Shown: positions 33,029 through 43,006, counted from the first letter of the stretch. The stretch is DNA of 64,000 bases from Blastocatellia bacterium (GCA_038211695.1 JBBQVH010000007.1:34647-98646), one strand, 5' to 3'. Translations and numbers: made by a program. Notes: generated from the sequence alone by a model not told the origin.

Positions 33029-33991
33029 CTAACTCCACGCCATAGTTGCCAAGCCGCCCGCGGCAGCGAAGTGATTAAAGGGCGCGTTGGGATCAACCTT
33101 CAATCCGATCTGTTGTGGATCAAGCGAAACCGTGTGATTTTCCAGCGCCGCAGAGAGCACATCGCGAAACCGGCGCTGGTCTGATGCCGTGCCCACGGTC
33201 AACAAGCGGCTGAGCGTGATCGGTTCGTTTTCAGGCACCAGGCGGTCGCGATAGAAAACGACCAGGCGGTAGAATTCATCTTCACGCTCTTGCTCTGAAC
33301 ACTCTACTTCACGAACCAGAATTGGCTCCGTTCCGCGTACGATCACCGTATCGAAGCCGTGTTCGTTCAAGCTGACGACAATCTGATCCTCATTGCTTTT
33401 CTGCCGTATCAGCCATTGCGCTTCCCCCAGATGCTGTGGAACGACCAGGCCGACCGGCCAGCGCAATTCTTTGAAGATGCGCTCATATTGCTCCAGGACT
33501 CGTGAATGAATGGCCGTGATCAGCCAATGAGAGCGGCCACCGGAGCTATTCAGCCGCGTGGAACTTGTCCGCAAGTCGCCGGACTTTTGGCCGAAAGAAC
33601 GTTCGATCTTCCATTCAAGCAACTGCGCCAATTCGGCGCGCGATTCAGGCACTGCTTCCATCGAAACGATCTGGCTGCGCGCGCTTCCGGCAGGTAGCGC
33701 GACGCTCAAGCTTCGCGGACGAGTAATCCCGGCCTGCGCCGCCGTTTTGGCCAAATGTTCCCGCAGCGCCGCTTCGTCCGAAACATTCGGCCCGGTGAAA
33801 CCAGCCTCTACCAGCCCCGCAGGCAAACGCAGCACGCCCAGATTGCGCGGCTCGAATTCACCACGGCTGCGGCGCAACGTGACGATGGCCAGATGTGATT
33901 CGCTGATGGACAATGCAGTGCGGGGAAGATCAGGCGCGGTCAGGTAATTCCAAAGACCGGAGATGATGGGAATTTGTTGCATAAATAGCAT
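33029..33991 (-). CDS. PilM/GspL-cytoplasmic-domain-like actin-fold assembly protein (tentative)
   Basis: N-terminus ALSISESHLAIVTL...GVLRLPAGLVEAGFTGPNVSDEAALREHLAKTAAQAGI...SLSVALPAGSARSQIVSMEAVP parallels PilM (GLDIGSSSIKVV...PLPEGAIVDG...ALKRLL...KVALAVPGSSVITKVIEMP); last gene of the secretion cluster. Confidence 0.45.
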   Translation of the reverse strand: MLFMQQIPIISGLWNYLTAPDLPRTALSISESHLAIVTLRRSRGEFEPRNLGVLRLPAGLVEAGFTGPNVSDEAALREHLAKTAAQAGITRPRSLSVALPAGSARSQIVSMEAVPESRAELAQLLEWKIERSFGQKSGDLRTSSTRLNSSGGRSHWLITAIHSRVLEQYERIFKELRWPVGLVVPQHLGEAQWLIRQKSNEDQIVVSLNEHGFDTVIVRGTEPILVREVECSEQEREDEFYRLVVFYRDRLVPENEPITLSRLLTVGTASDQRRFRDVLSAALENHTVSLDPQQIGLKVDPNAPFNHFAAAGGLATMAWS

Positions 33992-34053
33992 GAAAAACTG
34001 TGGCTTCGTTTTAGCGAGAGGCCGATTGATGTAAAGAATTCGCCAGCGTCTTT

Positions 34054-34509
34054 TTAATATTCTGAGAAAGCCTTGCCTGAGGAGTCTGCGCCGGGCGCGC
34101 TACTCTTCACCCCACCGACGCCACCCACGGCATTCAAGTCGGTTGAATCCGATACCGCAGGCACTTCCGTCCAGGGGCATTCGGGGCAAATGGGGTCTTT
34201 CGGAATTTCGCGCAAATAGCCCGCTGATTTTACGTCTTCCAGGCTTGCCGGGGGTTTGTCCTTATCCGTCGTATAAAAATCAATCGCACGGTTCATTGCC
34301 CACAGGTCTTGTTGCAGGACGACTTCTTTCGCACGGCGCAGATGCGCCATGTATCTGGGGATCGCCACGGTTGCCAGGATTGCAATGATGACCATTACGA
34401 TCATCAGCTCCATAAACGTGAATCCCCGCTCTGCTCGGCGGAGAATGCGGTGTCTGCGATTGTCAGACTCGCGCGATTTGAAATTTTCAGTTCGAGATTT
34501 TGCTCTCAT
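34054..34509 (-). CDS. type II secretion/type IV pilin-like pseudopilin (GspG-like) with prepilin cleavage motif
   Basis: ...RAERG|FTFMELMIVMVIIAILATVAIP... class III signal peptide (G|F, Glu at +5). Confidence 0.7.
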   Translation of the reverse strand: MRAKSRTENFKSRESDNRRHRILRRAERGFTFMELMIVMVIIAILATVAIPRYMAHLRRAKEVVLQQDLWAMNRAIDFYTTDKDKPPASLEDVKSAGYLREIPKDPICPECPWTEVPAVSDSTDLNAVGGVGGVKSSAPGADSSGKAFSEY

Positions 34510-34526
34510 TGCTTACCAGTCTTTGC

Positions 34527-35075
34527 TTACCAGTCTTTATAAGAAGTTTTGCCATCCAACGCCATTCCCTGTTGCCTGCTGGAGACGTCAAAGATGTTAT
34601 CCAATCCATCGCTTGACGGCGATGTCACCCAGTCGGCGTTCCCCGTCATTGGGTCTTTGGGAAGGCGGCGCAGAAACCTGATCTTTTCCCCATTGGGTTT
34701 ATTGGCCAGTGGAATGCCATCAAGCAAGTCTTCCTGCAGGTCTTTAGGATAGCAGTCGTATTTTTCACGAGGCCGCCCAGCCATATAAAACGGGCTGAAC
34801 CGGCCCTGGTCACAGGCTAAATAGTAACGGTCTATCGCTTGCCGAACTTCGCGTAGGTTGCGGCGCAACTCCATCTCTTTGTCGCGCCGGATGACATTGC
34901 GCGCCACCGGAATTGTTCCCGCCGCCAGAATGGCAATGATTGCCAGGGTAATGATCAGTTCGAGCAGCGTGAAGCCGGATTCACTGACAGGCTGTTTACC
35001 CGTTGTTCGCTGTCCGCGCCTGTCGCCGATTGGCAACAAACAACGGACAACGAACAAGCGATATTTATCGTTCAT
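34527..35075 (-). CDS. gspG: type II secretion major pseudopilin GspG-like; long leader, start uncertain (ORF extends to 35111 and overlaps secretin stop)
   Basis: ...SESG|FTLLELIITLAIIAILAAGTIPVARN... plus conserved GspG core (CYPKDLQ...DPMTGNADW). Confidence 0.7.
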   Translation of the reverse strand: MNDKYRLFVVRCLLPIGDRRGQRTTGKQPVSESGFTLLELIITLAIIAILAAGTIPVARNVIRRDKEMELRRNLREVRQAIDRYYLACDQGRFSPFYMAGRPREKYDCYPKDLQEDLLDGIPLANKPNGEKIRFLRRLPKDPMTGNADWVTSPSSDGLDNIFDVSSRQQGMALDGKTSYKDW

Positions 35076-41372: not shown

Positions 41373-41749
41373 ATTGTACTGCTCTCGCTGTATGAGTTCG
41401 ATAAGTGTGAGTGGAGTCGTACGTCTGCCAACCGTTAAATTACAACTTCAAGTGAGGGTGATTCATTCAAATTTTAAGACTACCAAGAGGCTATCTACTA
41501 GAGGGCAATCGCTTCGGATTGAGGGCAATCTTTTTTAACTTCGCCTGCACAATGTACCGTTGGGCCATTTTGTACTGTGACTTCCACGAGTACCTGAATA
41601 AAGTGAACGGTGTTGTATTGGCCGTACATGCGTCTTTAAAAATTTGAAAAAGAACTCCAACGGGTTCACGCTTTCAGTCGCATCAAGTTTCATAAATTTC
41701 CCACTTTTTTTAACGGGAAATGGGATAAGGTTGGTCAGGCATAAGAGAT

Positions 41750-41799
41750 GGGAAAAACAAGACTGGGGCGCAACCACAATGAGTGATTGCGCCCCAGTC
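41750..41799 (-). terminator. rho-independent terminator downstream of the secreted hypothetical gene (minus strand), separating it from gspF
   Basis: gactggggcgcaa (41761-41773) / ttgcgccccagtc (41787-41799) stem with adjacent A-run (T-run on minus strand). Confidence 0.45.
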
Positions 41800-41887
41800 T
41801 CACTACGGATATTCAATAATGATACTTGCGGTGGCTCGTGTGTGAGGGATTGTGTGAGGTGCAGCCTTCCGCTTTTCAGTTAAATTT

Positions 41888-43006
41888 TTATGGACACAAA
41901 CTGCTCCCACGTGTTGGATAATCAACAGTGGATCCGCATGATGGCGGAATAAGCGGGATCGTGATCGAATAGCCCGGAGCATTGAACGTCGTCGCGTACC
42001 GTAAATTGTGCCCACCCGTGAACGACCCGACTTTCGTCGCTGTTGCGCCCATCAGAGGGACATTGGAAAGCCTTGTCGTCGCGCCGGAAGTGTTGCAAGT
42101 CACTGTCTGACTGCCAACACCATAGAAGCTTGCCCAACCCGTGCGTCCACTAGGAACGATTATGTTGAGTGGTGGTGACGTACGAACCGATGTGATTCGT
42201 TGTTTGTCCGGAGTCAAATAGCAATTCAGCGGCAACTGTCCTGAAAATGAGTGCTCGGAATCATCGTGAACCAGGAAAAAAAGCGTTCCGCTAAACGCGC
42301 TGCCAGTCACCAAATCAGGCAACGGTGTGTAAACATAGATTCGCGTGTCGGCTAATGGCGCACCAACGCCCGCCACCTGACTGGGGAAGCTATCAAGCAC
42401 CATCGTATATGGCAGCGAATCATACTGAGAGCTGTTAAAAAACATTGTTGCCGTTGTCCCATCAGCATTAGCCGGTGATGCGAAGTTACCGTCACGGCGT
42501 GCTGCCGCTACTGCCGCTAATCCAAAACGATGGCCAGTCTGATTGACAACCAGTTCATCTCCGGCCAGGTAGTTAAAGCTAACCGGACGCCCTTGAGAGT
42601 CAACCGCGATGGCCATTAAGTAGCCAGTCACATTCGGATCAAGGTCCGACGTGAGAAATGTCGTGGTCTGATTTCCTGTCAGGCAGAGAAAAGCATCGGC
42701 AATGATGCAGGTGCTGCTATCAACAAAAAAGACGTGGATGACAACGTCAAGCGTGGGATGGACGTTGGTAATGTTAATGCGCGTATTGACCTGACTGCTC
42801 AGTGCATCACTGGTGTAATAGTTGAAGAAAAGTACGCTGCCAAGTTTATTTTCGCTGACGCCAGTTCCCAGCGCAGCATCAGAGGCACTGCCGGGAAGTC
42901 CCGGAATCCCCTGTGCGCGGGCTTCTACGGCGCAGCCAAAACTCAATACAGCCAAAACAAAAGCATATGAAAAACCCAACAAAAGACGGCGACGTGAGGC
43001 TCGCAT
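41888..43006 (-). CDS. secreted hypothetical protein (372 aa) directly upstream of the secretion-system genes; candidate substrate
   Basis: Signal peptide MRASRRRLLLGFSYAFVLAVLSFGCAVEARA; no recognisable catalytic motif; Thr/Ser/Gly-rich beta-rich composition. Confidence 0.55.
   Translation of the reverse strand: MRASRRRLLLGFSYAFVLAVLSFGCAVEARAQGIPGLPGSASDAALGTGVSENKLGSVLFFNYYTSDALSSQVNTRINITNVHPTLDVVIHVFFVDSSTCIIADAFLCLTGNQTTTFLTSDLDPNVTGYLMAIAVDSQGRPVSFNYLAGDELVVNQTGHRFGLAAVAAARRDGNFASPANADGTTATMFFNSSQYDSLPYTMVLDSFPSQVAGVGAPLADTRIYVYTPLPDLVTGSAFSGTLFFLVHDDSEHSFSGQLPLNCYLTPDKQRITSVRTSPPLNIIVPSGRTGWASFYGVGSQTVTCNTSGATTRLSNVPLMGATATKVGSFTGGHNLRYATTFNAPGYSITIPLIPPSCGSTVDYPTRGSSLCP

Follow-up and report, generated by a model that had tools for sequence, protein, structure and literature searches.

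We analyzed a 64,000-nucleotide stretch of the genome of a Blastocatellia bacterium (GCA_038211695.1, JBBQVH010000007.1:34647-98646; hereafter the window), which carries on its minus strand a compact six-gene cassette related to type II secretion systems (T2SSs) and type IV pili, two machines from the superfamily of type IV filament (TFF) systems. T2SSs and type IV pili have mostly been described from a few proteobacterial models. In the direction of transcription the cassette reads gspF, gspE, a gap of about 400 bp, a secretin gene, two prepilin genes and a gene for a PilM-like protein (Table 1). This order had been proposed in an initial annotation of the same DNA and was found again here, as was its departure from the canonical Gsp, Pil and Tad layouts; the MSH and Com layouts were not matched either. 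Sequence comparison identifies the cassette as a putative reduced and rearranged member of a cross-phylum TFF subtype, the "unorthodox T2SS" or "secretion system X". On balance, we lean towards the view that it is the Blastocatellia form of this widespread subtype and would serve in T2SS-like protein export.

Table 1. Cassette genes, regulatory features and neighboring genes, with positions counted from the first nucleotide of the window
Feature	Position	Strand	Details
Gene A, secreted beta-rich protein	41888-43006	minus	372 aa, signal peptide
Intrinsic-terminator-like hairpin between gene A and gspF	41758-41802	minus	20-bp stem, 11 GC pairs, T-run
GspF/PilC-type inner-membrane platform (first gene of the cassette)	40152-41372	minus	406 aa, PF00482 in two stretches, 188 bits
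GspE/PilB-type assembly ATPase	38491-40113	minus	540 aa, PF00437 431 bits and PF05157 62 bits
Non-coding gap between gspE and the secretin gene	38089-38490		402 bp
ECF-sigma-type promoter motif inside the gap	38327-38350	minus	GGAAC-N16-CGT
Secretin	35065-38088	minus	1007 aa, PF00263 105 bits, Cohesin PF00963 44 bits
Prepilin 1	34527-35111	minus	longest open reading frame 194 aa, PF07963
Prepilin 2, candidate major (pseudo)pilin	34054-34509	minus	151 aa, PF07963
Soluble PilM-fold (actin-like) protein (last gene of the cassette)	33029-33991	minus	320 aa, AlphaFold and Foldseek
RskA-type anti-sigma factor	31185-31949	minus	PF10099 70 bits; NF052375 115 bits, above cutoff
c-type cytochrome	32199-32945	minus	lipoprotein-like signal peptide, long Pro/Ala-rich linker
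Secreted protein	25817-28765	minus	982 aa, DUF7948, six SBBP beta-propeller repeats, TIG-like C-terminal part
Double-FHA protein	43667-44443	plus
Ser/Thr kinase	44497-46404	plus	635 aa
Trio of genes	46184-50233	plus	PEGA/CarboxypepD_reg-like protein, 475-aa protein, DUF1517 protein

Related loci were collected by scanning one genome per species for the ATPase, which gave 80 loci (L001-L080). Where their sources are ranked below the phylum, they belong to the Blastocatellia, Pyrinomonadaceae/Pyrinomonadales or Chloracidobacterium, the others being labelled just Acidobacteria/Acidobacteriota. One of the 80 (L017) comes from the cultured Pyrinomonas methylaliphatogenes K22. The gspF gene lies directly upstream of the ATPase gene in all 80, as it does in the window and in the loci of Paraburkholderia and Ralstonia described below, in keeping with the placement of GspF before GspE noted earlier. 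In each of the 53 loci where GspF, GspE, secretin, pilin 2 and PilM were all detectable, gene order and strand were the same as in the window (F-E-D-pil-pil-M), a non-standard synteny. This degree of conservation bears on the idea that the cassette is a decaying, non-functional remnant of a fuller system, which we consider very improbable. Some relatives do have gspF-gspE alone, and the PilN/O/P genes of fuller versions have been lost from the cassette; however, across the 53 loci, at 28-90% protein identity, none of the six open reading frames (ORFs) is disrupted and their order does not change, and the prepilin cleavage sites, the Walker A motif, the zinc motif and the promoter are all conserved. 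The gspF-gspE pair occurs by itself in five loci (L053, L057, L064, L068 and L078, three of them labelled Chloracidobacterium), whose ATPases are 72-73% identical and in which the 6-10 kb downstream of the pair are free of secretin, pilin and PilM genes. The cassette can thus be split into two halves, in line with two transcription units.

The platform protein scored 321 bits against the NCBIfam model of GspF (TIGR02120, cutoff 424) and 273/266 bits against PilC, and matched Myxococcus PilC in the PDB with 219 bits. The ATPase carries a Walker A motif (GPTGSGKT), a zinc motif (CxxC...CxxC) and one N-domain of the T2SSE_N type (PF05157, residues 24-104). The N-terminal motif through which MshE binds cyclic di-GMP has the form RLGxxLLxxGLI... 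and is repeated; an MshEN reading of the ATPase N-domain was dropped because this motif was not visible on reading the sequence. The GspE and PilB models of NCBIfam were nearly tied (TIGR02533, 545.1 bits, cutoff 630; TIGR02538, 544.5 bits, cutoff 676), and the TadA-family model gave 59 bits against a cutoff of 373. In the PDB, the full-length protein scored 439 bits on PilB and 380 bits on GspE, and its core (residues 150-540) gave 372-376 bits with PilB of Myxococcus and Geobacter, 354-366 bits with Vibrio GspE and 339-342 bits with Thermus PilF. No record matched the ATPase exactly in a look-up by sequence. The core is 56-59% identical to the "system X" ATPases of Ralstonia and Paraburkholderia and 42% identical to E. 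coli GspE and HofB, and the best plasmid-borne matches to the ATPase were on megaplasmids of Paraburkholderia and Ralstonia solanacearum (46-50% identity). With both equivalog cutoffs missed, near-equal GspE and PilB scores and 42% identity to E. coli GspE and HofB, the ATPase does not lie inside canonical GspE. A small neighbor-joining tree clustered the "system X" ATPases together; with E. coli GspE and HofB as its only canonical references, the tree speaks for affinity and not for a placement within the TFF superfamily. The slightly higher ATPase scores on PilB than on GspE in the PDB (439 against 380 for the full length, 376 against 366 for the core) and the closeness of the platform to Myxococcus PilC favor a different function, in which the machine would build a true surface pilus for adhesion, DNA uptake or twitching, that is, a type IVa-like pilus encoded in a single locus, as opposed to a secretion system. 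We regard this as possible, though somewhat less probable than export.

The secretin has a signal peptide, TPR-like N-terminal helices, STN/N0, one Secretin_N domain, the secretin core, a low-complexity linker of ~250 aa and a cohesin-like C-terminal domain (residues 867-970). Its Pfam matches to STN, N0 and Secretin_N were all sub-threshold, and at its TPR-like N-terminus the TPR match of the window protein itself was weak or absent. Against NCBIfam it scored 156 bits on GspD (TIGR02517, cutoff 351), 107 on PilQ and 81 on the MshL model (cutoff 250); GspD chains headed its sequence matches in the PDB, RcpA reaching just 39 bits. A Pfam scan found no AMIN domain on it. The missing AMIN domains and the higher GspD score argue against the surface pilus. 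The secretins of Ralstonia, Paraburkholderia and Blastocatellia relatives share the unusual layout seen in the window, in which TPR, STN/N0, Secretin_N and Secretin parts are followed by a Cohesin domain at the C-terminus. This last domain scored 81 bits in Ralstonia, 42 in Paraburkholderia and 44 in the window, and it was also found at E<=1e-3 in five of the eight Blastocatellia relatives checked. A literature search on secretin-cohesin fusions gave nothing specific.

Both prepilins have a canonical class III signal peptide, with the cleavage site G↓FT(L/F)(L/M)EL. Prepilin 1 would mature to 148 aa after ...SESG↓FTLLEL, and its true start is probably further downstream than that of the longest ORF; homologues were found in 50 related loci, with a mature length that varies from 146 to 221 aa. 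Its C-terminal signature, DV.S...G..L(D/N)G..Y.(D/E)W, recurs in the betaproteobacterial version as DV.S...G..LNG..Y.(E/Q)W. Prepilin 2 would mature to 122 aa after ...AERG↓FTFMEL, and the mature length of its homologues is nearly constant (~121 aa), most of them being cysteine-free. The best NCBIfam match of both was GspG (TIGR01710, cutoff 89), at 52.5 bits for prepilin 2 and 30 bits for prepilin 1; the best PDB match of prepilin 2 was also a GspG (5wda), and sub-threshold matches to PF08334 were present in five of eight of its homologues. By tblastn, prepilin 1 showed 35% identity to the first pilin encoded after the secretin in Ralstonia/Paraburkholderia, and prepilin 2 showed 40% to the second; in pilin 2 of the Betaproteobacteria, the terminal W of the signature is missing. 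Small, mostly cysteine-free pilins of this kind, without the disulphide-bonded D-region of type IVa pilins, again argue against a surface pilus. The initial annotation had found no minor pseudopilin genes (H-K). This holds insofar as GspI, GspJ and GspK gave no match and only two prepilin N-termini were present in the window (E. coli GspH matched just the two pilins, via the N-terminal helix), but one of the two pilins may itself be a minor one. Fuller members of the subtype encode a third, large pilin-like protein of 279-302 aa (L083:2844-3752, L082:18624-19463, L090:12409-13263), which has no counterpart in the window; its N-terminus lacks Glu5 (G↓YTLLALM) and is reminiscent of GspK-type tip pilins.

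The last protein of the cassette gave no Pfam, NCBIfam or PDB sequence match. Its AlphaFold model, built on a 41-sequence alignment, had a pLDDT of 87 and a pTM of 0.85, and Foldseek against the PDB placed PilM on top, at E 1e-17 to 1e-18 (P. aeruginosa 5eq6, E 3e-18; Thermus 2ych, TM 0.73; Myxococcus 3jc8_M, TM 0.72), followed by FtsA and then by the cytoplasmic GspL/EpsL at TM 0.45-0.47. It has no transmembrane segment, and its first 20 residues are disordered yet conserved. The earlier suggestion that a PilM-like actin-fold protein stands in place of GspL was therefore right about the fold and wrong about the replacement, as a soluble, PilM-type protein without a membrane segment is not a GspL equivalent. 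The family is small and distinct; a search of 1.84 billion representatives yielded 967 clusters at E<=1e-3 and 274 at E<=1e-10, and hhalign related it to a 289-aa Paraburkholderia protein encoded right after gspE (probability 62%, E 7e-5). The canonical DxG...K phosphate-1 motif was not seen in a by-eye reading of the alignment, the window protein having LSISESH at that place. The PilM fold is a point in favor of the surface pilus, and the apparent lack of canonical phosphate-binding motifs would be one in favor of a decaying remnant.

Several components that would be expected of a classical system had been reported as missing, and for the prepilin peptidase and GspC/L/M we reached the same result within the 64-kb window, which extends 33 kb and 21 kb past the cluster ends. 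When all window ORFs of 50 aa or more were queried with E. coli K-12 proteins at E<=1, GspC, I, J, K, L, M and O gave no match and GspD, E, F, G and H matched only cluster genes, and no Pfam match to the Gsp accessory families (GspC/L/M) was present in the window. No A24 prepilin peptidase was found there either, the multi-transmembrane ORFs being BacA, MlaE and a TPR membrane protein. The window further holds no paralogues of GspE, GspF, secretin or PilM, no prepilin N-termini beyond those of two ORFs and no msh-type genes, and its pilins are not Flp-like. It has no second T2SSE-family ORF, and thus no PilT-type retraction ATPase, which is another point against the surface pilus. Profile hidden Markov models of the PilN, PilO, PilP and third pilin of the subtype, built from its fuller members, found nothing at E<10 in the window, in L001-L080, or in L085, L088 and L089, the neighborhoods of the 80 relatives being examined over +/-10 kb around gspE.

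One could explain these absences by supposing that the locus belongs to an ordinary T2SS or to a type IVa pilus, with the missing parts encoded just beyond the window; nothing about it would then be atypical. A peptidase must indeed exist somewhere, peptidases are often unlinked and shared (PMC6668835), and one Blastocatellia lineage has PilN/O/P genes and a third pilin gene immediately upstream of gspF. However, none of these genes was found in the two flanks or in the neighborhoods of the 80 relatives, and gene order, secretin architecture and ATPase affinities are non-canonical whatever lies elsewhere, which makes this explanation improbable.

The initial annotation had raised the possibility of a lineage-specific system, and this part could not be upheld, as the subtype is also found on megaplasmids of Ralstonia and Paraburkholderia, to which the cassette is linked by gene order, secretin architecture, pilins and the ATPase core. 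For these betaproteobacterial loci, "unorthodox T2SS" and "secretion system X" are already in use as annotations (PMC5080846, PMC5095457), and the Ralstonia ATPase bears the annotation "secretion system X protein GspE-like". A literature search for T2SS or TFF analyses of Acidobacteria or Blastocatellia gave nothing specific. The hallmarks of the subtype are a platform gene placed before the ATPase gene, a secretin with TPR-N0-N1-secretin-cohesin architecture and two short post-secretin pilins that share a C-terminal signature. The betaproteobacterial order is (GspG)-F-E-four small genes-secretin-pilin-pilin-pilin. In these loci, gspE and the secretin gene are separated by four genes (one in the PilM position, one with a PilN domain and two others; PMC5080846), and in the window by the 402-bp gap; the window also lacks their third pilin-like gene and the GspG gene that Ralstonia has upstream, and its PilM-like gene lies at the 3' end, with no N/O/P. 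Because the four genes between gspE and the secretin gene are missing, we file the window cassette as a reduced variant and not as a typical "system X" member.

Fuller versions, in which the PilM/N/O/P-like genes sit between E and D or N/O/P lie upstream of F, were also found in other relatives. Metagenomic relatives L086 and L087 have F-E-PilM-PilN-PilO-(PilP-like)-secretin-pilin-pilin, often with an ECF (extracytoplasmic function) sigma and anti-sigma pair in front, and L081/L082 have a variant of this arrangement. A ten-gene version (L083, L084, L090 and L091) starts with PilN-like, PilO/GspM-like, PilP-like and third pilin genes and continues with F-E-D-pilin-pilin-PilM, exactly as in the window; one member of this lineage is labelled "Blastocatellia bacterium" by NCBI. 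The description of the cluster as minimal thus holds for the clade of the window, which is without N/O/P nearby, and not for all relatives, since some, including one Blastocatellia lineage, encode PilN/O/P-like proteins and a third pilin. The existence of these fuller relatives means that "minimal" describes a derived, reduced state, or genes that have moved elsewhere, and not a primitive design.

Compared with known systems, the cassette shares with the canonical T2SS a secretin, a GspE-type ATPase, a GspF platform, GspG-like prepilins and the lack of a retraction ATPase in the locus. It differs from it in that D, E, F and G all fall short of their equivalog cutoffs, the window gave no match to GspC, L, M, I, J, K and O, the order is F-E-D-G instead of C-D-E-F-G, the secretin has a single detected Secretin_N domain with TPR and cohesin parts instead of N0-N3 and an S-domain, and the actin-fold protein is of PilM type instead of GspL type. 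With type IVa pili it shares the PilM fold, the PilB-like ATPase scores and, in fuller subtype members, PilN/O/P-like genes, whereas the window is without PilN/O/P, PilT and PilD, the secretin is without AMIN, the pilins are short and mostly cysteine-free, and everything lies in a single compact locus with the platform gene first. The defining features of the MSH pilus and of the Tad/type IVc pilus are found in it in neither case. In a survey of the superfamily, 884 systems stayed unassigned in a "generic" class, defined by a clustered ATPase, inner-membrane platform and major pilin, with secretin and peptidase optional and no specific model fitting (Denise et al. 2019, PMC6668835); the components of the window would fit this class by its stated definition, though an assignment to the T2SS model of the survey is also conceivable. 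The reduced T2SS of chlamydiae, without GspL/M and minor pilins (PMC6668835), is a parallel to the window. From both the chlamydial T2SS and the "generic" class, the window differs in gene order, the PilM-fold component, the TPR-secretin-cohesin protein and the ECF-type promoter.

The 402-bp gap between gspE and the secretin gene is accounted for by a conserved, putative ECF-type promoter. ECF sigma promoters are classically marked by GGAAC at -35 and CGT at -10. Alignment of the gap with those of L001 and L002 uncovered a common TGGAAC...CGT block, and GGAAC-N15-17-CGT was present on the coding strand of the gap in 56 of 69 relatives, as against one of 69 on the opposite strand, a mean of 0.75 (maximum 3) in shuffled gaps and a locus-wide background of 0.11 per kb. 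Flanking positions that had not been part of the search were conserved too, with a G before CGT at 52 of 57 sites and GTAA after it at 50-55 of 57. The consensus is tTTnnGGAACt-N16/17-GCGTGTAA, at a median of 99 nt from the secretin start; the copy of the window has a longer leader of ~240 nt to the secretin and the -10 region GCGTTGAA. The motif was weakly enriched upstream of gspF (10 of 74) and absent there in the window. In the ten-gene variant, it lies ahead of the first gene (L083:402, L090:9935). A Rfam scan of positions 31000-45000 at E<=1 gave nothing, and hence no riboswitch or known RNA is present in the gap; scans for sigma-70 and terminator consensus sequences stayed at background level, save for the one strong hairpin after gene A. 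The ECF-type promoter appears to switch on the outer-membrane half of the cassette.

Candidate regulators lie downstream of pilM. An ECF sigma gene directly follows pilM in 39 Pyrinomonadaceae-type loci, and in Pyrinomonas K22 a zf-HC2-like anti-sigma gene comes after it. As the gaps to the sigma gene are short (mostly 50-200 nt) and a separate ECF motif stands in front of it in just 1 of the 39 loci, the sigma gene is probably part of the same, self-activating operon. An RskA-type anti-sigma gene lies downstream of pilM in L001-L003, L005-L009 and L089, and that of the window is a possible regulatory partner of the cassette. VreI and the Hxc system of P. aeruginosa set a precedent for a T2SS under ECF sigma control (PMC2729926).

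Taken as a protein exporter, the machine might work as follows. A prepilin peptidase encoded elsewhere would cut both prepilins after the conserved Gly, and a hexamer of the GspE type would sit on the GspF platform, scaffolded from the cytoplasm by the PilM-like protein, and polymerize pilin 2, pilin 1 serving as primer or tip of the filament. A short filament under or through the secretin could then act as a piston that expels folded periplasmic proteins in the manner of a T2SS. The N-terminal TPR module of the secretin may be, as a guess, a built-in pilotin-like or assembly module, and the cohesin-like tail on its linker might conceivably be a periplasmic tether. The secretin-pilin-pilM operon would be turned on by an ECF sigma factor upon an envelope or extracellular signal, gspF-gspE being transcribed apart from it.

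We favor export over the surface pilus because F, D and G lean towards Gsp and because there is no disulphide D-region, no AMIN domain and no linked PilT. This preference is a modest one, as PilM, PilN/O/P and the ATPase scores point to type IVa pili. Additional evidence on either side comes from the literature. The T2SS of Bacteroidetes branches with type IVa pili (Denise et al. 2019, PMC6668835), so hybrids exist, which is in favor of a pilus; the Pyrinomonas strain is described as non-motile, which is against it, and degrades proteins and carbohydrates (PMC4644332). The same genome paper lists a five-gene T2SS, which may correspond to the cassette.

A number of points weigh against our interpretation. 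The choice between secretion and pilus draws on weak leanings of the sequences; the ATPase appears equidistant from PilB and GspE, the likeness of the pilins to GspG seems to lie mostly in the N-terminal helix, with PF08334 below threshold, and PilM, together with the PilN/O/P of relatives, is a hallmark of type IVa pili. The prepilin peptidase was not located in the window, and PilN/O/P genes could be present elsewhere in the genome. The promoter, for its part, is a predicted sequence motif and not a mapped transcription start, the -10 region read in the window (GCGTTGAA) departs from the consensus (GCGTGTAA), and four sigma queries found no ECF sigma gene in the window.

A bolder proposal is that in most Blastocatellia the locus would encode a functional TFF machine with no N/O/P or GspC/L/M anywhere in the genome, in which a soluble PilM-fold protein is the sole accessory, the extensions of the secretin (TPR head, linker and cohesin tail) couple motor and channel, and the outer-membrane half is under an ECF sigma/anti-sigma switch. 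We consider this unlikely, though worth stating. If true, this machine, with no periplasmic alignment subcomplex, would be smaller than any other TFF machine known from diderms and would show, as an experiment of nature, which parts can be spared.

Gene A, the secreted protein that the initial annotation had counted as a member of the cluster, should be removed from it. A strong terminator sets it apart as a transcription unit of its own, and its linkage to the cassette is confined to the closest relatives (L001, L002 and L004 of the 80 loci, plus two further metagenome-assembled genomes, as judged from locus-tag spacing); because of the terminator and of this linkage in few loci, we treat it as a neighbor and not as a component. 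It gave no Pfam or NCBIfam match, and its AF2 model (pLDDT 73) had no PDB fold match at E<=1e-3. Its family comprises ~356 detectable homologues with conserved cysteines, all named ones being from Blastocatellia or Acidobacteria. An identical protein was found only on a 2.5-kb contig. Homology to the PilP-like gene (358-360 aa) of the ten-gene version was rejected for want of any similarity. The product of gene A could be a substrate of the neighboring machine.

Other neighbors are conserved to varying degrees. The genes of the double-FHA protein and the Ser/Thr kinase are divergent from the cassette; this pair adjoins gspF in L001, L002, L004, L006 and L009, also where gene A is missing, which hints at a second, phosphorylation-based control layer in the clade of the window. 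In L089, gspF is directly flanked by a trio of genes similar to that of the window (540-aa, 467-aa and DUF1517 proteins; the match is one of size and Pfam only), which makes gene A and the FHA-kinase pair look as if they had been inserted in the lineage of the window. The c-type cytochrome gene between pilM and the anti-sigma gene is kept at that position in L001, L002 and L005-L009 and is absent from L089 and the Pyrinomonadaceae. The large secreted beta-propeller protein lies further along the same strand (Table 1).

The subtype spans from Betaproteobacteria to soil Acidobacteria, and up to now genome papers have mentioned it just as an "unorthodox" or "X" cluster. What is new here are its hallmarks, the reduction series within the Blastocatellia, the structural identification of the PilM component and the conserved ECF-type promoter. 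The finding is comparative and predictive and brings no new principle. It defines a core of the subtype, made of F, E, the TPR-secretin-cohesin protein, two signature pilins and PilM, and the series from ten to about nine to six genes indicates that PilN/O/P can leave the locus, by loss or relocation. It also offers a regulatory hypothesis, in which a well-defined ECF promoter is paired with a sigma gene of the same operon. Blastocatellia abound in soil, where they break down polymers, and this machine may therefore be their main route for the export of folded enzymes.

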